Positions 37,609 through 48,689 of a stretch of 64,000 nt of DNA are shown here, piece by piece. A program made the position numbers and the translations under genes. A model generated the notes under the pieces. That model was not told where the DNA came from, ran no database searches, and saw nothing but the letters and a program-made list of their open reading frames with translations. Each line of letters starts with the position of its first letter. Position 1 is the first letter of the stretch. The stretch is from an uncultured Clostridia bacterium (GTDB lineage: Bacteria > Bacillota > Clostridia > Oscillospirales > CAG-272): positions 113,574 to 177,573 of the forward strand of contig CANRIL010000001.1 of assembly GCA_947630625.1 (NCBI GenBank). The letters run 5' to 3'.

Positions 37609-40600
37609 TTACTTTTCTACTTTGAGTAAAATTTTTGTTTTTGCGCCCGTCGGCATGAAGTTCACGCGTTCGCCGGCGCGAACCGTTTTTTCTATGATAT
37701 CAACTCCGTCAACGTTCGCGTCCCCGGCGTCATCTTCGCAGGTTGACGCAGCTCTGACGCATATCTCGACTTCGTGCTCGCCGGCGCGGACGCGGGCGTT
37801 AAATTCGGTGTCCCCGTAGGCGGTCACCGAAACCCCGCCGCGGTCAAGCTCGATGCCGAGATAATACTTCATCGTGATCCTGTAAAACCACGCGGCAGAC
37901 CCTGTATATCCGCTCCAGCCGCTTTTGCCCGTTATCCCGTCGCCGTAATAAATATCGGCGGTGAGAAAATACGGCTCCGAGGTGAATGCTCCGCCTATAC
38001 GCCCGCGCTCGTAAATGCTGACCGGGGAGATGGAGGCAAGCAGCCGCCTTCCCGTTTCCCTGTCGCCTATTGCAAAAAACGAGGCGGCGCACCAGACGGC
38101 GGCGTGCGTATACTGTCCTCCGTTTTCCCTTATCCCGGCGGGATACCGGCAGATATATCCGTGCACCTCCGTTTTGTCATACGACGGCGCGAAAAGCCTC
38201 AATATTCCCAGCTGCCCGTCATAAAGGTGTTTTAGGACGTTTTGAAGCGCTGTGCGTGAGCGCTCGCGGTCAGCGTCGGCAAATACGGAGAACGACTGCG
38301 GCAAAAGGTCGATTTTGCATTCGGAGCATTTCACAGAACCGAGAGGTTCCCCGTCGTCGTCAAACGCGCGGACATACCATCCGCCGTCCCACGCGGAAAC
38401 CTCCGCCGCGGACACAAGCGCATCGGCGTCGTACATGAGCCGTTCGGCAAGCATCGGGTCGATGCCGGCGCACGTCAGCATTTCGGAAAATCTGCGGTAT
38501 ACGACCGCAAAGAAGAACGCGAGCCAGACGCTCTCGCCGCGTCCGCGGACGCCGACCTCGTTCATGCCGTCGTTCCAGTCGCCTGAGCCGATCAGGGGCA
38601 GCCCGTGCTCACCTCTTTGAAGAGATGCGTTGATTGACGCGATACAGTGTTCAAGCACGGTCGCGCTGTAATCCGTGACACCCGCCGTCTCGTATCTGTC
38701 GCCCTCGTCATCCCTGAGCGGCGGCGAGGTGAGGGACGGCGTGCGCAATGAGAGTATATCCGCGTCCCCGGTCGCGAGCACGTATTCAGCCACTGCGTAT
38801 GGCAGCCACATATAATCGTCGCTGCATCGCGTCCGCAGCCCTCCGCCGTAGGGCGCGCCGTGCCACCAGTGCTGGACTCGTCCGTCCTCATACTGCCGCG
38901 CGCAGCAGCGAAGTATCTGCAATTTTGTAAGCGCGGGGCAGAAATAGAGCGCGGCAAGGCTGTCCTGAAGTTGATCTCTGTACCCGTAAGCGCCGCCCGA
39001 CTGATTATATCCCGACCTTGCGAGAATCCGTACAAACAGAGCCTGATACGCGGCGAAGTCAAGAATTCCCGAAAGAAAGCTGTCGCGGCTGCCGTCAAAG
39101 ACGTGTCTTTGCAGGATTTTATCGGCGCGGCGTCTGTATTTTTCAAACGATGCAAGGATAAAGTCAGATCGGCGGAATGTGTCGCGAATGTGGAATACGC
39201 ATTTTTCGCCCGCCGGAAAAGCCGCGACGGCAAATCCGCACTCGCCCGCTGAAAATGCGCACGGAACTCTCAACATGTCGCCGAGATTTTCTACGGAATC
39301 GTGTATTTCGTCGGACACGGCGAACAAAGAGACGCGCGCCGCGGCGTCCGACAAAAGCGACAGGATGCCGCCTGAATAGATCGACGGCGCGGACGGACAG
39401 AAATAAAGCGCCGCGCGGACGTGTTCCACTGCAATCTCCGTCTCCGGACGGATGCGGATGTGGTAGAGCTTTACGGGCAAAAGCGCATCGACGCCGACAC
39501 GCAGCTCATACGATATGCCGCCGACAGTGCCGCAGAAAAGACCGCAGTCCCTTCCCCACACGACCTTATCCGCCGAACGCGCAAGATCATACGTCACGCC
39601 GTCCGCCGTCAGGCATATCGTCTCGCCCGGCGTTCCAAGCAAAGGATCATTGTGGCGGCGGCTGACGGTTGACATCGCGGAGTTCGCGTACCAGCTGTAG
39701 CCGCAGGAAAGATTCGTAAGCAGCGTGCCGAAAACGGTGTTCGCGTATATCATCGAGTACGGCGATTCGTTATATCCGTTGGAAATCTCTGCCGCACCAG
39801 AAACGATTTCGCACGAAATACGATTGCTTGAGTGCGTATTATAAACTATTTCCGTGACCGCCGCCTTCTCCGGCTTGACGACCGTGAACGTATGCGACGT
39901 TCCGATATCGACGGTGCGGCAGGACAAAGCGATAAACAAAAGCTCGTCCTCCGGCGAAAGCGGTTCCCTGTCAAGGATGAAGATGCCGTTGTTTTTCCCG
40001 ATCAGCCGTTCCGAACCGCTCTCCTTCACCATCTGCCGCAGCTTTCCCGTACCGCGCGCGAAATATCCGGACGACGGCGCGATAAATACAATATCAAACC
40101 TCACGCCGGAAACAAAGAGGAATCGCTTTGCCGCGATCAGCTCCGATACCGCAAAAACGTCTGCTGATGACGTAAGCTCGCAGCAGAAGACCGTGACGAT
40201 CGGCAGATCTCCCGATATGCCGTACCGCCACAGAAAATCGCGCCTGTACCGCGGGCTGATGTTGTCTCCGCACTCGATGATTTTTACCGGGTCACGGCAT
40301 ACGGCTCCCGCAAGTTCCATAGCACATCTGACGGCAGCCATATCAGCGCCGGCGAGCGCCGACAAGGCGTTGAGATGCGTTTCCATTCCGATCCGAGCCT
40401 CATCCGCCGAAATAACCGTCTCGCCGTCAGAAGATAGAGAGACGCCGCATTTGCGCGGGCTCCCGGACGACATACCGGACACGACGGCCGCAAACACGGG
40501 ATGAACGCATGCTCCGTCCTTCACATTTTCATCGGCGGACTTGTCGAATATCTTCTTCACGTCCTCGAAATCATACCGAAACGGAAGGATCGTGTCCTTG

Positions 40601-43600
40601 CGCGTGTGTATGCGGACATTGTCACCGCGCGATGGTGTGACCCTGACCGTCAGCGCAGTCTTTTCTTCGGGCGCGGTCTTTCTTTCATATCTCACGGCAA
40701 AGTCGTCGATCATTTCCGAGGTAATGAACAGATCGGAATACGACGGCGCGCTCTCATACGACTGCCGCTTATTCATCACCGGGTCAAACATGAAAAGAAC
40801 GTCGTAGTTCCCGTCGATCCCCGAAACGGTCAGTTCGCACACGGCCGTCGGAGACGAATGGGCGACAGTCAATATGAGTTCGGTTTTGATGATGTGCTCG
40901 CCGAGCACGAATTCGTTCACATATGAGACGGCTGCGCCGTCTGTCGAAAACTGCACGCGCTGACCGGACGTACACGCAGCCACTGTGTCACCGACGCGAA
41001 GAAGCGCTGTAAATCCGGAGCATCCCCGAACAGCGGGCTGAGAAATCAGCGTCTGCCCGTCGTAAATCACAATTTCACCGGACTTTTTCGCGAATATCTT
41101 TTCCCTGCCGTTTGAAACGACGGCTGAATCTGAAACGATCGCGGTGCCGTCGATCTTCCCCGTTACAGGCACGTGCTCCTTCGCCCGTATCTCCGCCTTC
41201 TGCTCGGAAACTCTTCTGTTTATCCCGATGTTTTCAAACAGCATCGGCAGCGCCGCGCGGATCGACGGCTCACGGCAGAAGCGACTTCTGTTTATTCCCG
41301 AAAGGCAATAGTTTGCCGCTGATGTGATGCTCATCCCGATGTGGTGCGACATATATATCATCGCGACGCCGTATTCTTCCCCGACGCGGAAATCGGTCAT
41401 GTCAAGCGACTCGTAAAAGCCGTATTTGCCGTAAAGCCTGCCGTCGCGGTGGTCGGCGAGCACATATGCGGCGCTCGCGTCAAACTGCGAGAGCAGATAG
41501 AGCGAATAAGGCGCTATGACGTTGTCGTCCTTGATGTCGGGCGAGATCGCGAGCGAGTCGCAACCGTGCGCCTTATATGAATAGTTGACGCTGTCGTCAA
41601 AATCGTAAAACGACGATTCAGACCTGCCGTAAATTCGTTTCCCGTCGAATAAAACGGGGTCGCCGCTCTGGAAAAAGTTCGCTGCGGCGAGCGCTTCATA
41701 CCTCGCTGTTCCGGGGACTGCCGGAAGAAAAATCGCGGGCATGAAATATTCAAACGCGCTTCCGCTCCAGGATAGCATCGCCTCTATCCCAACCTCGTCG
41801 CTGTACACACGTCCGAGTGAGGCAAGGTGTTCGCCAGGGACTTGTCCCGTCGCCGCCGTATAAAAGCTTGTCGTCAATATCTCTCCGGCGTAGAGGTCGT
41901 ATACGTTTTTGTCGTATTCCTTTGCGGCTGAATTGTAGCCGATATAGAATAGACCGCGCCGCTTGTTGTAAAGCGCCGAGAAATCGGCGTCCCCGATCAG
42001 CTCAGTTATCTGTTCCGTCAGCTCTTCCGCGCCTCCGTATTCGAGCAGCGCGTTTTTCACCGTAAGGAGGCAAACGATGAAATTCCCGCTGTCGACCGTT
42101 GAAACATACGCCGGATAAAGCACTTCAAGCGAGCGGATATCGTACCAGTTATATAAATGCCCGTGCCATTTTTCAAGATGCGATACAGTCTCAAGAGTGT
42201 CTTTGATCCGCGACTTCATCTCCTGATACGGAATAAACCCGAGATCGTATGCGTTTACGGTCGACAGCATGTATAGACCTATATTTGTCGGCGAGGTGCG
42301 CTCCGCGACCTTTGACTCGGGCTGCAGCGTTACATTGTCTGGCGGGAGAAAATGATATTTCTTTTTTACATTGTCAGCGAAAAAGCGCCACATACGCTCG
42401 GCATCGAGCATTATGCCCGCCCGGCTCTCCTCGTCTCCCGTGTCAATGTGACGCGCGGCGGCAGAGCTGCAAAGCCTGTGTGTTAAGATCGGGAACAAAA
42501 ACCAGAAGACACCGTAGACGGGCAGTATAAGCCTGCATATGCCGTCCGAGATCAAAACAGACGCGAGCGCGAGAGCCCCCGCAAGCAGCGTTATCCACAT
42601 GCGCCGGACATATGAAAGCGCGCTCCCCGTATTCTCCATGTCGGATGACGCTGCCGTTTTCCATTCAAGGAGCTTCCGCTTTGAAAATTTCATTCTGTAA
42701 AACGCGCGGTAAACGCCGTCCGCGGAGTTTGCTGCAATATCGACCGCCGACGAGAGCCCGAACCAGACTTCAAACAGCGCAGCCTCGTAATAATTCGGGA
42801 CGCCTGAAAAATACCGCCTCCAGGGAATGCGATACGAACCTATAACGAGTGTCGCCGCCTTGAAAATGTGGTCTGATACGGACAGAAGATAGATCAGAAC
42901 GCCGAGCGGCGTCGAGCCGATAAGCGAGAGCAGGATCGCTGCCGGACGAATTATCGAGGTCAGCGCGGACATGACCGGCTCGAACATTATGAGCCTGTCG
43001 GTTATCCCGACGGGATTTTTGTATTTTTCCCCGGTCTGCGACGGTATCCCCAGCCGCAAAAGGCACGTCGCCTGTACGTCGCCGCGTATCCATCTATGAG
43101 CGCGCGAGCGCTCGCGAAGATAATCGCGCGGCACCCCGTCGTATACGCGAAGGTCGGACGCGTGTCCGCAGCGCAGCCGTATTCCTTCCGCCGTGTCGTG
43201 GCTGAGGATACGCTCGTTCGGGAACGCGCCGTATATCGTCTTCATATACGCGTCGACCGATATAAGTCCCTTGCCGCAAAATGAACCGGTGCCGAACAGA
43301 TACGAATAGACTGAAAAAGACGATCTTTCATATTCGCTTCTGCCGCCGTATGCGTATCTATATGAGGTGTACCGGCAGCGCCGGTCGGCGTCACTCAGCG
43401 AAACATGCGCCTCCGGCGCTATGACGCCGTAGCCGTCCGACACTATTGGGTATCCGCTGCTTCGCGAAATCGTCGGCGCGCAGCACGGGTGAAGCGCCGT
43501 TGCGATAAGTTTTTTTATGTCGGAATAAAGAATTTCGGTGTCCGCGTCAAGCGCGAGCACGTATTTATATCCTGTTGGCTCCCCGCCGTGTACGGACAGA

Positions 43601-44871
43601 TTCGTTTTTTCGCCGCTGAGAAGCGAGAACAACTCCGCCTGCGCGCCGCGCTTTCGCTCAGCGCCTATATAGCGCCGCTCGCTTTCAGACCACGTGCGCC
43701 CGCGCCAGAATAGATACGCTTCCCCGCCGCCCTTGTTTATTTCATCGATGCGGCTGACCGCGTACCTGATTATGTCATCATCTCCGTCAGCCGCCTCCGT
43801 ATCCGCGTCCGGCAGGTCGGCAAGAACGGCAAAGCCGAGGCAGTCGCTCCTGTACGCCTTCGCGTATGTCGCGAGCCTGTCAAAGACGGCTCTGTCGCCG
43901 CCTTTGCCGGAGAGGGACACCGTGTAGACGAGCATTGTTTTCCCTTCCGGCGGGATCACATCGAGCGAGAGGCGCGGCAGGATGTCCGGAACGTCCGCGC
44001 GCGAGTATATCCATTCAAGCAGCAGCTTCAAAAACGCCCGCATCGGCAGATACGACGCGAGCGCGCCGAAAAACAGCGCCGTTCTGTCGCTGCCGTAAGC
44101 GACGGCGGCGAGTGCCGCCGCCGTCAGTGCCGGTACGATATAAAGCGTCGGGAAATAGAGCGCCGCCGCCATGCCGTGGCGCGAATATTTCATTATGTGC
44201 CAGCCGACGTGCCGCGCTTTGCTGCCCGGCTCCGATTCTTCGGCATTTTTTAAAATCAGCTTTGATGTCTCGTATTCTCCCATGTGGAAGCGGCGGCTGA
44301 TCTCCGCCAGTTTGCGCCTGTACATGCTTTTGGTGTCGCTGTCGCAGCGCACATACACTCCCGCCGGGTCGCGGATGAGCACGGATTCCGAATATGACAC
44401 GGTTTCATATATATGCTCAAAATCTATGTCGCGCAGCCCGAATATAAGCCGGACGGCGTCTCCGACGCGGAAGAGCGTCCCTGCGCGTATTCCCTCGGCG
44501 ATCATATCAACGGCGACGAGATGAAAATATACGCGCAGGTAAAATAACTCGCCGACTGTCAGATATGAATGTTCGCGCTGATAGTCGTTTATCCTCGATA
44601 TAAGCCCGGCTTCATCCAATGTAAAGACGCACTCCTCCGTTATGCGGCGGCAAAGCTCCATGATGCGCGGCTCGCCGTGCTCCGTCGGCAGCGATTTTAC
44701 TTCCTTAAGCGTCGATATCGCGGATTCAGTCAGCTTTATAATAAGGAGCCTGTTTTCAAAAAGCCATCGTTCATCGGGAGCGGATGAGAATGACAGCGGC
44801 GACGCGCGCCTTATCGCCGACAGATTTCCCCTTACTCTTCTTTTCAGCTTTAAAACGGCAGATGAACTCAT
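37609..44871 (-). CDS. cyclic beta-1,2-glucan synthase-like protein (GT84 + transglycosylase domain + GH94 phosphorylase; NdvB/Cgs family)
   Basis: LDADT, ILSHD, HRWIRGD; PPDN, RTSPTNIG, YVSTVDSGN, SWSGSAFEYFMP; QSGGAYGYRDQLQD, GDWNDGMN, RENGGQYTHAA. Confidence 0.88.
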   Translation of the reverse strand: MSSSAVLKLKRRVRGNLSAIRRASPLSFSSAPDERWLFENRLLIIKLTESAISTLKEVKSLPTEHGEPRIMELCRRITEECVFTLDEAGLISRINDYQREHSYLTVGELFYLRVYFHLVAVDMIAEGIRAGTLFRVGDAVRLIFGLRDIDFEHIYETVSYSESVLIRDPAGVYVRCDSDTKSMYRRKLAEISRRFHMGEYETSKLILKNAEESEPGSKARHVGWHIMKYSRHGMAAALYFPTLYIVPALTAAALAAVAYGSDRTALFFGALASYLPMRAFLKLLLEWIYSRADVPDILPRLSLDVIPPEGKTMLVYTVSLSGKGGDRAVFDRLATYAKAYRSDCLGFAVLADLPDADTEAADGDDDIIRYAVSRIDEINKGGGEAYLFWRGRTWSESERRYIGAERKRGAQAELFSLLSGEKTNLSVHGGEPTGYKYVLALDADTEILYSDIKKLIATALHPCCAPTISRSSGYPIVSDGYGVIAPEAHVSLSDADRRCRYTSYRYAYGGRSEYERSSFSVYSYLFGTGSFCGKGLISVDAYMKTIYGAFPNERILSHDTAEGIRLRCGHASDLRVYDGVPRDYLRERSRAHRWIRGDVQATCLLRLGIPSQTGEKYKNPVGITDRLIMFEPVMSALTSIIRPAAILLSLIGSTPLGVLIYLLSVSDHIFKAATLVIGSYRIPWRRYFSGVPNYYEAALFEVWFGLSSAVDIAANSADGVYRAFYRMKFSKRKLLEWKTAASSDMENTGSALSYVRRMWITLLAGALALASVLISDGICRLILPVYGVFWFLFPILTHRLCSSAAARHIDTGDEESRAGIMLDAERMWRFFADNVKKKYHFLPPDNVTLQPESKVAERTSPTNIGLYMLSTVNAYDLGFIPYQEMKSRIKDTLETVSHLEKWHGHLYNWYDIRSLEVLYPAYVSTVDSGNFIVCLLTVKNALLEYGGAEELTEQITELIGDADFSALYNKRRGLFYIGYNSAAKEYDKNVYDLYAGEILTTSFYTAATGQVPGEHLASLGRVYSDEVGIEAMLSWSGSAFEYFMPAIFLPAVPGTARYEALAAANFFQSGDPVLFDGKRIYGRSESSFYDFDDSVNYSYKAHGCDSLAISPDIKDDNVIAPYSLYLLSQFDASAAYVLADHRDGRLYGKYGFYESLDMTDFRVGEEYGVAMIYMSHHIGMSITSAANYCLSGINRSRFCREPSIRAALPMLFENIGINRRVSEQKAEIRAKEHVPVTGKIDGTAIVSDSAVVSNGREKIFAKKSGEIVIYDGQTLISQPAVRGCSGFTALLRVGDTVAACTSGQRVQFSTDGAAVSYVNEFVLGEHIIKTELILTVAHSSPTAVCELTVSGIDGNYDVLFMFDPVMNKRQSYESAPSYSDLFITSEMIDDFAVRYERKTAPEEKTALTVRVTPSRGDNVRIHTRKDTILPFRYDFEDVKKIFDKSADENVKDGACVHPVFAAVVSGMSSGSPRKCGVSLSSDGETVISADEARIGMETHLNALSALAGADMAAVRCAMELAGAVCRDPVKIIECGDNISPRYRRDFLWRYGISGDLPIVTVFCCELTSSADVFAVSELIAAKRFLFVSGVRFDIVFIAPSSGYFARGTGKLRQMVKESGSERLIGKNNGIFILDREPLSPEDELLFIALSCRTVDIGTSHTFTVVKPEKAAVTEIVYNTHSSNRISCEIVSGAAEISNGYNESPYSMIYANTVFGTLLTNLSCGYSWYANSAMSTVSRRHNDPLLGTPGETICLTADGVTYDLARSADKVVWGRDCGLFCGTVGGISYELRVGVDALLPVKLYHIRIRPETEIAVEHVRAALYFCPSAPSIYSGGILSLLSDAAARVSLFAVSDEIHDSVENLGDMLRVPCAFSAGECGFAVAAFPAGEKCVFHIRDTFRRSDFILASFEKYRRRADKILQRHVFDGSRDSFLSGILDFAAYQALFVRILARSGYNQSGGAYGYRDQLQDSLAALYFCPALTKLQILRCCARQYEDGRVQHWWHGAPYGGGLRTRCSDDYMWLPYAVAEYVLATGDADILSLRTPSLTSPPLRDDEGDRYETAGVTDYSATVLEHCIASINASLQRGEHGLPLIGSGDWNDGMNEVGVRGRGESVWLAFFFAVVYRRFSEMLTCAGIDPMLAERLMYDADALVSAAEVSAWDGGWYVRAFDDDGEPLGSVKCSECKIDLLPQSFSVFADADRERSRTALQNVLKHLYDGQLGILRLFAPSYDKTEVHGYICRYPAGIRENGGQYTHAAVWCAASFFAIGDRETGRRLLASISPVSIYERGRIGGAFTSEPYFLTADIYYGDGITGKSGWSGYTGSAAWFYRITMKYYLGIELDRGGVSVTAYGDTEFNARVRAGEHEVEICVRAASTCEDDAGDANVDGVDIIEKTVRAGERVNFMPTGAKTKILLKVEK

Positions 44872-44986: not shown

Positions 44987-46102
44987 TTATTTTCCGCCTG
45001 CCGCTTTCCATTTGAGATAAGCGTTGATGAATCCGTCAATATCGCCGTCCATCACGGCCTGGATGTTGCCGTCCTCGTATCCGGTGCGCGTGTCCTTCGC
45101 GAGCGTGTACGGCATGAAGACGTATGAACGGATCTGAGCGCCCCATTCGATGTTCGTTTTAACGCCCTGTATATCTTCGACGCGCTCAAGATGTTCGCGT
45201 TCCTTTATTTCGAGAAGCTTTGCCTTCAGCATTTTGAGCGCCGTTTCCTTGTTCTGAAGCTGGCTGCGCTCAGTCTGACAGCCGACGACGATGCCGGTCG
45301 GCTTGTGTACGATCCTTATTGCAGATTCGGTTTTGTTGATGTGCTGTCCGCCCGCGCCGCTCGACTTGTGCGTTGTGATCTCAAGGTCGGCTTCGTTGAT
45401 CTCGATCGAGCCGTCGTCGGTAAATTCGGGCATGACCTCGACAGAGGCGAACGAGGTGTGCCGCCTGCCCGACGCGTCGAACGGGGACACACGGACGAGG
45501 CGGTGTACGCCGTTTTCGCTCTTGAGGTAGCCGTAGGCGTTAAGTCCCTCTATCATGATCGTCGCGCTCTTGAGTCCGGCTTCTTCGCCGTCAAGCCAGT
45601 CGATGAGCTTTACATTATATCCGTGACGCTCGCCCCAGCGCGTATACATGCGGTAGAGCATGAGCGCCCAGTCCTGCGCCTCGGTCCCGCCCGCGCCCGG
45701 ATGGAATGAGAGGATCGCGTTGTTCGCGTCGTACTCGCCGGACAAAAGAACTTCTATGCGCATCCTGTCCTCGTCGCTTTCAATCGCCGCCGCCTCGGAC
45801 GTGATCTCGTCTATCATCGACTCGTCGTTTTCCTCGATAGCCATTTCCGCCATCATGATCGCGTCTTCAAGCCGCTGGCACAGCGTCTCATATTCCGCGA
45901 CCTTGTCCTTGAGCTGCTTGATCTCTTTCAGAACGCGGCTCGAATTTGCCTGATCAGACCAGAAATTATCCGCATAAGTCTGCGCCTCAAGCTCCGCTAT
46001 ACGTTCCTTCACGCTGTCAATGCGGAGCGCCGAACCGAGATCTCTGACAGGCTCTCTCATCGAGATGAGCTTGTATTTTGCTTCTTCAAGTGCTATTATC
46101 AA
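44987..46102 (-). CDS. prfB: peptide chain release factor 2 (single uninterrupted ORF)
   Basis: GAGGTEAQDW, SPF specificity motif, GAGGQ; TTG start with SD GGAGG. Confidence 0.96.
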   Translation of the reverse strand: MIIALEEAKYKLISMREPVRDLGSALRIDSVKERIAELEAQTYADNFWSDQANSSRVLKEIKQLKDKVAEYETLCQRLEDAIMMAEMAIEENDESMIDEITSEAAAIESDEDRMRIEVLLSGEYDANNAILSFHPGAGGTEAQDWALMLYRMYTRWGERHGYNVKLIDWLDGEEAGLKSATIMIEGLNAYGYLKSENGVHRLVRVSPFDASGRRHTSFASVEVMPEFTDDGSIEINEADLEITTHKSSGAGGQHINKTESAIRIVHKPTGIVVGCQTERSQLQNKETALKMLKAKLLEIKEREHLERVEDIQGVKTNIEWGAQIRSYVFMPYTLAKDTRTGYEDGNIQAVMDGDIDGFINAYLKWKAAGGK

Positions 46103-46159
46103 AACCGTTACCTCCGGGCGTTAAAATATTTCGTCCGTATTTTTACTATAATTTATGCC

Positions 46160-46291
46160 GTTTGACTTCCCTTGTGTGCGGCGGAGCCGAAAGCTGTGCT
46201 TGAGGGGATCAAAATCTGATGATTTCGATTGAACGCAAGTTCAATCGCCGCCGCGCAGCGGCGAGCATCGGCGGAGCCGATGCAAATCATC
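46160..46291. other. multi-hairpin element including a perfect four-way junction
   Basis: GATGATTT/AAATCATC encloses CGATTGAAC-GCAA-GTTCAATCG, CGCCGC-GCA-GCGGCG and GCATCGGC-GGA-GCCGATGC. Confidence 0.7.
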
Positions 46292-46300
46292 CGTAATCTT

Positions 46301-46605
46301 TTTGGGATTTAAATGGCAAATCCGTGAAGATATTATACCACGAAGCAAAAATGCTTGCTTGCAAGGGCATTTTTGCGAGGCCGTCAATGCCGAGTCTGCG
46401 GCGAAGCCGCAGCAAAAGCGCGTAAGACGCGCTTTTGGGATTTGCAAAGCAAATCCACGAGGACATTATACCACGAAGCAAAAATGCTTGCTTGCAAGGG
46501 CATTTTTGCGAGGCCGTCAATATTGAACCTGCGGCGCAAGCCGCAGCAAAAGCGCGCGCAAGCGCGCATTTGGGATTTACGAAGTAAATCCGTGAAAATA
46601 TTATA
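46301..46605. repeat. tandem repeat, about 2.3 units of 133-135 bp built from short palindromes
   Basis: Units start at 46301, 46434 and 46569; 57-bp identical core at 46332-46388 and 46465-46521. Confidence 0.9.
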
Positions 46606-46628
46606 ACATGATGAGATAATTTTGTAAA
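46600..46628 (-). promoter_or_regulatory. probable sigma-A promoter facing prfB
   Basis: Minus strand TTTACA-N17-TATAAT. Confidence 0.6.
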
Positions 46629-46689
46629 GTGCTTTTCTGACTATGCCGATCTTGTGAGAAAATAAAAAACATTAAAATTCGAATGCGGC

Positions 46690-46718
46690 TTGACATTGCG
46701 GGCGTTTTTGTTTAAAAT
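46690..46718 (+). promoter_or_regulatory. sigma-A promoter of the GH127 gene
   Basis: TTGACA-N17-TAAAAT. Confidence 0.7.
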
Positions 46719-46760
46719 CAAACCGTAAAGTCTATATACTTCTGAAAGGATGGAGGAAAT

Positions 46761-48689
46761 ATGAAAAAACTGACCTCCCCCGACATTCGCAGCATAAAGC
46801 TTGACGATGCGGGCTTTTTCGGACACTTCATCAATATCGTGAGAGACAGCGTTATCCCGTACCAGTGGGAAACGCTGAACGACAGAGTGCCGGACGCGGC
46901 TCCGAGCCACTGTGTCGAAAACTTTAAAATCGCCGCCGGTGAGGCGGAGGGCGAATTTTACGGCTGCGTGTTCCAGGACAGCGACCTTGCAAAATGGCTT
47001 GAAGCCGTCGCCTATTCGCTGATGAGCAAACCTGACGCGGCGCTTGAGGCGACGGCGGACGATGTGATCGAGCTTATCGGGCGCGCACAGCAGCCGGACG
47101 GATATCTCAATACATATTATACAGTCAAGGAGCCGGGACGCCGCTGGACAAACCTTCGCGACAACCATGAGCTTTACTGCGCCGGACATATGATGGAGGC
47201 CGCCGTCGCATATTATTATGCCACGGGCAAGCGCCGTCTGCTCGATATCATGACGCGAATGGCGTACCACATCGACTCCGTTATCGGTCCTGAGGAAGAG
47301 AAGCTGCACGGTTATCCCGGACATGAGGAGATCGAACTCGCGCTCGTGTCGATGTACCATGCAACAGGCGACCCCCTCATGCTGAAGCTCGCCAAATATT
47401 TCATCGACGAGCGCGGACGCGAGCCGAGATTTTTTGATATCGAGGCAGAAGCGCGCGAAGGCGCCCGCCGCAATCGCCGTTACCGTGACCCGGGAGACTA
47501 CGCGCAGTGGCACCGCCCAGTCCGCGAACAGGACGCGCTTGAGGGGCACAGCGTTCGCGCCCTTTATCTTGCGACGGGAATGGCAGATGTCGCGCGCGAG
47601 ACAGGCGATGAAACGCTCCTCGACGCGTGCCGCAGATTATATGATAATCTTGTCCACCGCCGGATGTACATAACGGGCGGCGTCGGCTCATCGCCGGCGG
47701 GAGAACGGTTTACTTTTGATTACGACCTCCCGAACGACACTGTCTACGCCGAAACGTGCGCGTCGATCGCGCTCTGCTTCTTCATGCGCGCCATGCTCGG
47801 AAACGAGGCTGACGGACGTTACGGCGACACGATGGAGACGGCGTTTTATAATACGTGTATCGCCGGGATGTCGCTTGACGGGCACAATTTCTTCTACGTC
47901 AACCCGCTCGAAGTCCGCCCCGAGGCGAGCCGCAGAAATCCCGAACACAGACACGTCCTGCCCGTGCGCCCGAAATGGTTCGGCTGTGCGTGCTGCCCGC
48001 CGAATCTTGCCCGCCTCATAATGAGCATCGGCAGGTATATCTACACTGTCGACGGCAGCACGATCTATACAAACCTTTACGTCGCCGGCGACGCCTCGCT
48101 GCATACGGCGGAAGGCGATGTCACGCTCAGGACGGAAACGCAGTATCCGCTCGACGGTACTGTTAAGGTTATGGCTTCTGCCGGAAAATATTCACTCGCT
48201 CTGCGCATCCCCGCATACTGCGGCGGGAAATACTCGGTCACGCTGAACGGCACGCCGCTGAATGCGGAGATCAGAAACGGATATGCCGTAATTGAACGCG
48301 AATGGGCTGACGGCGACTGCGTTATTTTGACGATAGATATTTCTCCACGGCGCGTTTACGCGCATTATAAGGTGCAAAACGATGCCGGAAAAGTCGCCGT
48401 CGCGCGGGGACCTATCGTTTACTGCCTTGAAGAAGCGGACAACGAAACGCCTCTCGGCGGCGCTGCATTGCCGCAGTCGTCGGAGCTTTCATGCGAATAC
48501 AAACCTGACAAGCTCGGCGGGATCTTCGAGATAACGGCTGACGGAACTGTCGCCGTCGACGACGGCGACGACTCGCTTTACCGCAGCACACCTCCGGCGA
48601 GAAAAAATACAAAGCTCACCTTTATCCCGTATTACACATGGGCCAACAGGGGCGAAGGCGAAATGACCGTGTACGTCCGAGAGTCATGA
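46761..48689 (+). CDS. GH127 beta-L-arabinofuranosidase family protein
   Basis: FQDSDLAKWLEA, HELYCAGH, GHEEIELAL, GHSVRA, YAETCAS, CACCPPN Zn ligands. Confidence 0.92.
   Translation: MKKLTSPDIRSIKLDDAGFFGHFINIVRDSVIPYQWETLNDRVPDAAPSHCVENFKIAAGEAEGEFYGCVFQDSDLAKWLEAVAYSLMSKPDAALEATADDVIELIGRAQQPDGYLNTYYTVKEPGRRWTNLRDNHELYCAGHMMEAAVAYYYATGKRRLLDIMTRMAYHIDSVIGPEEEKLHGYPGHEEIELALVSMYHATGDPLMLKLAKYFIDERGREPRFFDIEAEAREGARRNRRYRDPGDYAQWHRPVREQDALEGHSVRALYLATGMADVARETGDETLLDACRRLYDNLVHRRMYITGGVGSSPAGERFTFDYDLPNDTVYAETCASIALCFFMRAMLGNEADGRYGDTMETAFYNTCIAGMSLDGHNFFYVNPLEVRPEASRRNPEHRHVLPVRPKWFGCACCPPNLARLIMSIGRYIYTVDGSTIYTNLYVAGDASLHTAEGDVTLRTETQYPLDGTVKVMASAGKYSLALRIPAYCGGKYSVTLNGTPLNAEIRNGYAVIEREWADGDCVILTIDISPRRVYAHYKVQNDAGKVAVARGPIVYCLEEADNETPLGGAALPQSSELSCEYKPDKLGGIFEITADGTVAVDDGDDSLYRSTPPARKNTKLTFIPYYTWANRGEGEMTVYVRES

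Follow-up and report, generated by a model that had tools for sequence, protein, structure and literature searches.

Small intergenic repeats of bacteria include the Correia elements of Neisseria, which create or carry −10 boxes, and the BOX elements of the pneumococcus, which consist of modules in variable number, and bacterial transposable elements at large can create promoters by chance. Uniformly oriented arrays are found among integron cassettes and Xer-dependent IMEX phages, where they arise by regeneration of the target upon integration and where a folded hairpin of single-stranded DNA (ssDNA) with extrahelical bases acts as recombination site. To our knowledge, no bacterial transposable element targets a single, defined position within the core promoter, and the passages returned by a full-text search of the literature contained no element inserting at a fixed promoter position. 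With regard to the insertion sequences (IS) of the IS200/IS605 type, it is reported that IS608 inserts 3′ of a short word retained in the left flank (PMC5934647) and that the left end of IS200 carries a bidirectional terminator hairpin at nucleotides 12–34 (PMC4513863). Here, we describe an array of hairpin-rich repeat units in a stretch of 64,000 nt (hereafter the window; contig CANRIL010000001.1, positions 113,574 to 177,573 of the forward strand, assembly GCA_947630625.1) from an uncultured Clostridia bacterium of the Oscillospirales lineage CAG-272, in which the units sit in the promoter of a class-I peptide chain release factor gene (44987..46102).

We read this region, with a probability of roughly 55%, as a tandem array comprising one unit of a type termed X, two units of a type termed B and a remnant, all belonging to a family of small, non-autonomous mobile elements in Clostridia of the gut and rumen. 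That the unit as such is a mobile element homing to promoters is, in our assessment, very probable. All genomes compared are metagenome-assembled genomes (MAGs), in which repeats are often left unassembled, and relatives represent non-independent samples. Orthologues of the release-factor gene with 77–94% identity are present in 17 same-genus genomes, and the array is missing from every one of these loci (0/17). Their promoters keep the arrangement TTTACA-N17-TGnTAnnnT, and the flank of the −35 hexamer (TTTGTAAAG on the plus strand) recurs in the window at 46625–46633. As the relatives retain both native promoter and flank, the rightmost −10 box of the array can be recognized as completing the native promoter. 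The reverse situation was observed as well, since sites occupied in the genomes G006, G002/G011 and G016 are empty in the genome of the window. At one of them, its contig C18 reads TTGTAA-N17-TATAGT followed by the untranslated region (UTR), while the filled site of G002/G011 reads TTGTAA-N17(..ATGG) | TATAAT..element..TTCGTGG | TATACT-UTR. The element is placed between −13 and −12, i.e. between TGn and the −10 hexamer, with the distal hexamer being its own and the proximal one native. It is found in one orientation, and the filled/empty pair shows no visible target duplication, though a 2-nt duplication of TA is possible. After insertion, the native −35, spacer and TGn are joined to the TATAAT of the element, its terminal ...TTCRTGG is joined to the native hexamer, and both joints read TGnTAnnnT.

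Statistics over the collected loci revealed the same preference. A −35 hexamer at a spacer of 16–18 nt was recovered with at least four of six matches in 56/84 terminal units and with at least five of six in 33/84, compared to 10% and 1.3% of 5000 random positions, and a TG at the expected place was present in 71/84 terminal units versus 213/2075 TATAAT hexamers genome-wide. Among 60 distinct right junctions, the flank follows the pattern n-C(97%)-A(92%)-Y(98%)-A(83%), with T-K-T-C-A-A at +18 to +23. The proximal hexamer is TATAAT in 38/59 cases and another natural-looking −10 variant (e.g. TAAAAT, TATACT, TATCAT) in the remaining 21/59; the distal hexamer differs from TATAAT in 4–5 of about 78 full units. 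When units with CCAYGAA...ATTATA ends (P-type) were considered in arrays with at least 1 kb of flank, 32/45 arrays were located less than 300 nt upstream of a gene reading away from them, with a median distance from core to start codon of 51.5 nt. Six of the 45 seemed reversed, several of them being artefacts of crude open reading frame (ORF) calling. A first-pass annotation of the window had proposed growth of the array through successive insertions into a promoter, each of which restores the −10 box. The empty same-genus loci, the filled/empty pairs and the flank statistics support this proposal, while at least one array elsewhere (L107), considered below, looks like the product of local duplication.

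The features of the array and its surroundings are as follows, B1 and B2 denoting the two B-type units.

46208..46337, plus strand: X-type unit with a small-cloverleaf head (TGATTTCGATTGAAC...GCAAATCA), a truncated tail, a GGATTT hairpin and ATTATA
46338..46470, plus strand: B1, 133 nt, comprising CCACGAA, the core hairpin, GAGGCCGTCAAT, a three-hairpin tail and ATTATA
46345..46376, plus strand: core hairpin 1, a stem of 32 nt bearing a GG bulge as well as A5/T5 tracts
46471..46605, plus strand: B2, 135 nt, ending in the element-borne ATTATA (minus-strand TATAAT)
46478..46509, plus strand: core hairpin 2, seen in the sequence
46332..46340, minus strand: internal TGGTATAAT, an extended −10 without −35 and the −10 word closest to the gene, a putative promoter
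46465..46473, minus strand: internal TGGTATAAT at the B1/B2 joint, likewise a putative promoter
46600..46628, minus strand: composite promoter of the native −35 TTTACA (46623–46628), a native 17-nt spacer ending in TGT (46606–46608) and the TATAAT of the element (46600–46605)
46552..46567, minus strand, i.e. the promoter strand: GCGCGC hairpin followed by TTTTGCTG in B2, terminator-like
46166..46207, no strand assigned: degenerate remnant with the hairpin-like word TGCGGCGGAGCCG, not in the empty promoters of relatives
46103..46165, minus strand: native 5′ UTR and ribosome-binding site of the release-factor gene, ...TTTATGCCGT, homologous to the UTR of G002/G011
44987..46102, minus strand: class-I peptide chain release factor gene, labelled prfB in the first-pass annotation (Pfam PCRF 200 bits and RF-1 131 bits)
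46761–48689, plus strand: GH127 beta-L-arabinofuranosidase-like gene, the other flanking gene of the array

The unit features noted at first pass, including minus-strand TGnTATAAT words starting at 46332, 46465 and 46600, are all present: the hairpins GGATTT..AAATCC, GCAAAAATGC..GCATTTTTGC, CTGCGGC..GCCGCAG and GCGCG..CGCGC occur in the array, and the 57-nt block 46332–46388 is identical to 46465–46521. A repeat search returned two 104-nt copies of 88% identity at a distance of 133 nt and a 58-nt block in three copies with spacings of 133 and 135 nt; Tandem Repeats Finder reported no 133-nt array at the locus, but only a 12-nt period. The junctions at other loci fix the natural register as B1 = 46338–46470 and B2 = 46471–46605, by which the supposed third partial unit turned out to be the end of B2 together with native promoter flank. 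The originally described extent (46301–46605) does contain units, but the array is longer and continues through the X-type unit at 46208–46337, which shares 93% identity over 267 nt with a copy on contig C5 of the same genome, and the remnant at 46166–46207. The latter is a partial repeat of the hairpin CTGCGGCG..GCCGCAG and may be an old, decayed unit; in G002 and G011 the homologous UTR stretch directly abuts the −10 box. The composite promoter (46600..46628) is the best promoter-like site of the region, with 11/12 matches and TG present. As for the gene itself, the ORF (putative prfB) encodes 371 aa from a TTG start and shows no interruption. A paralogue of 37% identity lies elsewhere on the same contig, and a 2420-aa ORF (37609–44871, minus strand) follows directly downstream.

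Counting this locus, the genome (2.49 Mb in 63 contigs, 94% complete) contains nine B-type and seven X-type heads at seven loci in addition to two degenerate copies, with the X-type heads occurring only within arrays and the core palindrome being found nowhere else in this genome beyond the units. The unit was matched in 14/41 relatives, own genome counted, and in 9/18 genomes of the same genus. The exact 32-nt core was present in more than 117 stretches of other MAGs in a collection of one-per-species genomes; core-bearing records among those listed are MAGs from the gut and the rumen, with labels such as Oscillospiraceae, Acutalibacteraceae, Ruminococcus sp., Ca. Flemingiibacterium and Ca. 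Colimorpha. In an even, order-wide sample searched with up to two mismatches, 18/401 genomes from 14/177 genera and 8/30 families were positive, and a reversed-pattern control gave 0 matches. In contrast, the exact core had 0 matches in viral contigs, and blastn searches of plasmids and phages with the unit returned nothing. The dispersal within and between genomes is in line with the first-pass suggestion of an undescribed element. As a side observation, contig C38 (~590–640), beside the array at 127–530, carries a stretch on the opposite strand resembling the T-arm and acceptor 3′ end of a tRNA (..GGTTCGAATCC..CCA) without an obvious full tRNA, which could be an attachment-site remnant.

The presence of units at six other loci and in many other genomes places the pattern beyond chance and bears directly on the trivial explanation, namely a neutral tandem duplication or an assembly artefact restricted to this locus. 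In the contigs of four public DNA runs, the short-read assemblies do end within the array, where core bins reach a summed depth of 300–540x compared to about 4–10x in the flanks, and such breaks speak for an artefact; the public runs listed as containing the sequence included no RNA run. However, the dispersal over loci, genomes and studies refutes this explanation, and about 12% of positions differ between the two units while their stems are compensated, an outcome not to be had from a collapse or duplication artefact. This leaves it a negligible probability and upholds the first-pass view that neutral duplication does not account for the array. A joint 46340->46600 seen in runs from two other studies, skipping 259 nt, was considered as an allele without both B-type units but was not counted, as its shorter side comprises only 23 nt. 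We also observed one unit at the same promoter of an orthologous gene in four species-level genomes (L041, L076, L108, L119), with few substitutions in the tail. This indicates that some insertions are old and have been retained.

Side-by-side comparison of all copies in the genome defined a unit that begins directly after ATTATACCA and finishes with ATTATACCA, and which is ordered as CCAYGAA, a 32-nt bulged hairpin, GARGCCGTCAAT, a cloverleaf of three hairpins with closing stem, and ATTATA. The two unit types have a tail of about 85 nt in common and differ in their heads: B-type units (132–137 nt) start with the 32-nt bulged hairpin, X-type units (168–170 nt) with a small three-hairpin fold. 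In the window, the X-type head (46208–46295) has the closing stem TGATTT/AAATCA and three hairpins with the loops GCAA, GCAG and GGAG. In three arrays the gene-proximal first X-type unit is not beside a −10-like hexamer, unlike B-type units. A small ORF in the X-type head was ruled out, as its frame is broken by a 2-nt indel between copies, and a CRISPR array was likewise dismissed given that the parts between cores are homologous (76–92% identical) and structured.

The core hairpin has a 14-bp stem, a GG bulge and A5/T5 tracts. Copies collected without requiring an exact core contained a compensated variant GTAAAAATGC..GCATTTTTAC (GT..AC) in at least six genomes and a second one, GCGAAAATGC..GCATTTTCGC (GCG..CGC), in three copies of one genome, next to apical variants and decaying core copies. 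Compensated variants in multiple copies within one genome demonstrate proliferation after mutation. The tails diverge greatly between genomes; despite this, 60/67 fold with DNA parameters into exactly three hairpins with a closing stem, the fold also predicted for B1, and their mean folding energy is −35.5 kcal/mol compared to −21.0 for mononucleotide shuffles (median z −4.5). RNAalifold on a plain MAFFT alignment yielded seven pairs with compensatory changes, one of which occurs as C-G 29, U-A 21 and A-U 4 times, and within the window the closing stem covaries between AATGCC/GGACATT in B1 and AATATT/AATATT in B2. The covarying stems and the compensated variants across genomes support the earlier suggestion that the structure is under selection. 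When the nine own B-type units were compared pairwise, the leading 48 nt (CGAA, core, GAGGCCGTCAAT) showed no difference in 36/36 pairs, while the tails share a mean identity of 82.6% (range 75.6–91.8%). An invariant head followed by a variable tail would be anticipated if the head acted as a sequence-specific cis site, retained by each ancestor as a condition of being copied, and the tail need only fold.

Which strand folds was addressed by means of the loops. G-U pairs are equally rare in either direction (66/1861 on one strand and 67/1846 on the other). Of 202 hairpin loops on the top strand, 164 are closed by C-G and 128 are triloops, including 77 GNA and 3 TNC. The motif GCGNAGC occurs 71 times on the top strand versus 2 times on the bottom strand, and GCGNNAGC 31 versus 4 times. 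As DNA, d(GNA) loops and GCGNAGC mini-hairpins are reported to possess unusual stability (GCGAAGC Tm ~76 °C) and to occur at ssDNA priming sites (PMC3201870; PMC13037366). As the top strand serves as template for the downstream gene, a transcript from the adjacent promoter would bear the complementary, unfavoured loops. Taken together, the strand-specific mini-hairpin loops tip the balance slightly towards a folded single-stranded DNA intermediate rather than RNA. Of the two options initially considered, arrays of structured RNAs or of ssDNA units, the strand bias of the mini-hairpins thus favours the latter, while the missing G-U asymmetry disfavours the former.

These data also bear on the proposal that the units are primarily regulatory devices of the host, either as a small transcription unit or as a leader/attenuator, with the core palindrome at about −20 to −51 serving as operator or insulator and mobility being secondary or extinct. 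On the promoter strand, a −10 box is indeed followed by hairpins and a terminator-like core, to which this genus adds a GCGC hairpin with T run; the orthologous insertions retained in the four species-level genomes would be in line with such a role, and selection at each locus could explain the invariance of the heads. However, a search of positions 45000–48000 on both strands gave no Rfam match at E≤1, the G-U pairs lack strand asymmetry, and the stable loops are found in the non-transcribed orientation. Furthermore, the closing stem includes the −10 word, which is missing from the transcript of that very promoter, and the genes downstream are unrelated housekeeping genes. With the core palindrome also confined to the units in this genome and their presence varying among close relatives, we consider a primarily regulatory function very unlikely.

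We therefore return to the mobile element moving as a folded single strand, for which the following course can be envisaged. The top strand would be excised or copied and would fold as head hairpin plus cloverleaf, upon which an enzyme acting in trans would read the invariant sequence of the head and recognize the tail by shape alone. Insertion by this enzyme would then occur on the template strand, 3′ of the ..TA belonging to a −10 box. The TGnTAnnnT recreated at both joints would permit further insertion or duplication by slippage, and the recreation of the target at the joints would thereby account for tandem arrays. By analogy, reading a head by sequence and a tail by shape in trans would follow the logic of IS200/IS605 'peel-and-paste' and of the REP/RAYT systems, and the core hairpin probably also acts as a bidirectional terminator, as does the left-end hairpin of IS200. 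At the release-factor gene, the full promoter (46628–46600) would fire into B2, where transcription would meet the GCGC hairpin with its T run (46567–46552) and then the core, a terminator-like succession. Judging from the sequence, transcription of the gene probably starts mainly at the closest TGGTATAAT (46332–46340) with a leader of about 230 nt, and its expression may have been rewired, given that about 440 nt of terminator-like hairpins separate the gene from its −35.

A sister element, termed S-type, has the same 32-nt core combined with other ends (TTGATT | CCAGAA-core ... CCCTTTATT |), its last word being TTTATT. It is present in genome G041 in 39 copies of 85–97% identity (L206–L235) in varied intergenic contexts; across 27 distinct loci of this genome most left flanks end in ..TTGATT|, and the right flank is unconstrained. 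At L174:1180-1965, one complete copy is located 155 nt upstream of the single canonical IS200-like tnpA of G041 (118.6 bits), and an IS200-like element in G042 shows the same TTGATT| flank and ..TTTATT| end words. A hairpin following the tnpA of G041 (ATACCCCGCACTTCAGTGCGGG) resembles the first tail hairpin of the S-type. The guide/cleavage-site pairing rule of IS608 could not be mapped onto the CCAYGAA linker.

Several observations weigh against the proposed course, some of which concern the enzyme. The Y1 transposase domain PF01797 had no match in this 94%-complete genome. It scored above cut-off in 8/29 carriers tested, several of these hits being partial or weak, compared to 10/27 element-free relatives; by set, it was detected in 2/14 carriers and 10/27 non-carriers among the relatives and in 4/5, 1/5 and 1/5 genomes of further carrier sets, although its absence may also reflect MAG incompleteness or supply from another replicon. 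TnpB-type PF07282 was above cut-off in 0/5 genomes, and the core was found near 0/20 metagenomic relatives of the G041 TnpA. IS110 was above cut-off in 6/14 carriers, five of these six belonging to one clade, versus 2/27 element-free relatives, but in only 1/5 high-copy carriers. The genome of the window contains an IS110-family IS of about 1.57 kb in two copies of 97% identity (L172:~1215-2784 on contig C7 and L173 on contig C16), with TATAAT at its left end and TTGAC at its right, as expected for a junction promoter; its sequence is unrelated to the hairpin element, and the two copies have unrelated ends. No recombinase was found beside nine own loci and none recurred among 459 ORFs around the collected loci, the neighbours of the arrays being unrelated ordinary housekeeping genes. 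Hence, the co-occurring transposase anticipated at first pass was not recovered: Y1, TnpB-type and IS110 enzymes do not track the element, and none is among the array neighbours. A Y1 HUH transposase as the mobilising enzyme appears unlikely.

Further points against the proposed course relate to structure, position and sampling. Each unit bears a single conserved hairpin, and the ends of IS200/IS605 elements bear two similar ones. The top strand lies on the C-rich strand in 6/7 own arrays, in which the orientation is fixed by the gene; depending on the replication direction of the MAG contigs, this placement would be opposite to the lagging-template bias of IS608-type elements. Moreover, a word of 5–6 nt located 5′ of the cut cannot alone account for the enrichment of TG and −35 on its 3′ side, and ascertainment has to be considered, as the 117 loci were gathered by exact core match and the unit ends by an ATTATA regular expression. 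L107 repeats the odd hexamer ATGATA, which fits local duplication or slippage better than re-insertion. Finally, two loci of G016 (L012:~1380-1620 and L026:~1420-1620) share not only the element but also about 45 nt upstream of it, with a full TTGACA-N17-TGGTATAAT promoter, so that a larger promoter-bearing segment may have moved there. At one of these loci, the orthologous site in the genome of the window consists of two adjacent genes without a promoter.

The absence of a dedicated transposase tracking the element would fit a ubiquitous host recombinase and is in line with a rival explanation, a mobile circle that integrates by hairpin-dependent site-specific recombination in the manner of attC cassettes or IMEX elements, mediated by a tyrosine recombinase, possibly that of the host. 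The joined ends of the circle would mimic the promoter target, one strand pair would be exchanged and resolved by replication, and the recreated target would build up the arrays. Indeed, the end-joint ATATTATA|CCAYGAA resembles the target AnnnTA|nCAYA along a stretch of about 11 nt that extends to either side of the crossover, which an IS200-type mechanism need not produce, and the bulged core hairpin, the strand-specific loop signature and the uniformly oriented arrays beside a promoter are equally in agreement with this scheme. Against it, the joints show no shared overlap, with the proximal hexamer being native and the distal one TATAAT, and there is no integrase gene beside the arrays. Inspection of the joint by eye revealed neither attC-like R/L boxes nor a dif-like dyad, and the S-type sister follows an IS200-like rule with the target word on one side only. 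We regard integration of such a circle as quite unlikely.

A second explanation without a dedicated enzyme, or any enzyme at all, is spread by template switching or gene conversion through the 9–11-nt microhomology TRTGnTATAAT, with slippage generating the arrays and hairpins stalling the replication forks. Direct repeats of the −10 region invariably flank the units, L107 with its repeated non-consensus hexamer appears slippage-like, no enzyme was found, and a switch within TGGTATA would presumably also leave a consensus distal and a native proximal hexamer. What remains unexplained by this route is the identity of the 48-nt head in all 36 pairs compared to about 83% in the tails, the proliferation of compensated core variants, the strand-specific mini-hairpin loops, and the 39 S-type copies at TTGATT words, where homology extends over no more than 6 nt. 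In addition, a double microhomology switch between loci that are unlinked should be a rare event. Such enzyme-free spread is thus very improbable.

For the mobile element moved in trans as a folded strand, there is a substantial chance of a new mobilising enzyme and, with it, of a new class. A more far-reaching version, which we put forward as a possibility while leaning against it, would be a so far undescribed class of mobile DNA in bacteria, homing to the −13/−12 junction in promoters of the extended −10 type with the help of an enzyme other than Y1 HUH, TnpB-linked or IS110. Such DNA would capture the −35 and TG of the host to transcribe or melt itself and would provide the gene with a replacement TG and a terminator-insulator, its cloverleaf with DNA mini-hairpins being the priming or recognition signal of the excised strand; it would represent a prokaryotic counterpart of the promoter-targeting retrotransposons of yeast. 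If promoter homing holds true, the units constitute a natural system in which about 130 nt of DNA recognize TGnTATAAT promoters, they explain why hairpin arrays recur in front of housekeeping genes in uncultured gut Clostridia, and they imply an unidentified hairpin-specific strand transferase or a co-opted host enzyme. On the practical side, hairpin arrays of this kind break assemblies and could be misannotated as leaders or small RNAs.

In comparison with known systems, the element shares several properties with IS200/IS605 and its non-autonomous derivatives, the PATEs, including a fixed orientation without visible target duplication and insertion 3′ of a left-flank word, which is TTGATT for the S-type and the ..TA of the −10 box for P-type units. 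Further similarities to IS200/IS605 are the strand-specific ssDNA signature and the S-type copy 155 nt from an IS200-like tnpA, and the subterminal bulged hairpin 6–7 nt from the left end, which is bidirectional-terminator-like, may be likened to that of IS200. It differs from IS200/IS605 and PATEs in lacking similar imperfect hairpins at both ends, as the right-end hairpin varies between genomes and does not resemble the core, and also in that most carrier genomes have no Y1 transposase or TnpB above cut-off, the target context is promoter-specific with constraints at either side of the cut, the C-rich strand mostly carries the top strand, and the tail is a three-hairpin junction.

Short extragenic imperfect palindromes, invariant hairpins beside variable parts and mosaic or tandem clusters are likewise features of REP/BIME and REPIN-RAYT systems, and the combination of 39 S-type copies with a single-copy Y1 gene flanked by one of them, seen once in G041, is reminiscent of REPIN-RAYT. 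In contrast to REPINs, the units are not inverted pairs, have a low copy number (9–40) and occupy promoters instead of gene 3′ ends, and no RAYT-like gene is present in this genome. With Correia and BOX/RUP elements they have in common the nature of small intergenic repeats with a −10 box (Correia) or a modular build (BOX), but they insert at a defined promoter position, and, unlike the Correia/RUP miniature inverted-repeat transposable elements, their ends CCAYGAAGCAAAAA... and ...CTGCGnATATTATA are dissimilar and form no inverted repeats, with no duplication beyond the possible TA. Uniform orientation, target recreation and a bulged hairpin may be compared with integron and IMEX arrays, from which the element is set apart by many promoter targets versus a single attI or dif, no integrase nearby and no overlap in the joints. 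By shape and motif only, G4-type single-strand initiation signals (ssi) may be similar as well, comprising about 100 nt of ssDNA with three hairpins and GCGNAGC/GCGNNAGC mini-hairpins (PMC13037366), but these are phage and plasmid replication origins and not chromosomal insertions. Overall, we judge the element to be a REP/PATE-like variant with promoter homing: its presumed single-strand logic is shared with PATEs and REPs, as are the lack of duplication and the target word in the left flank, whereas we found no earlier description of an element that inserts into extended −10 promoters at a single fixed position and regenerates their −10 box.

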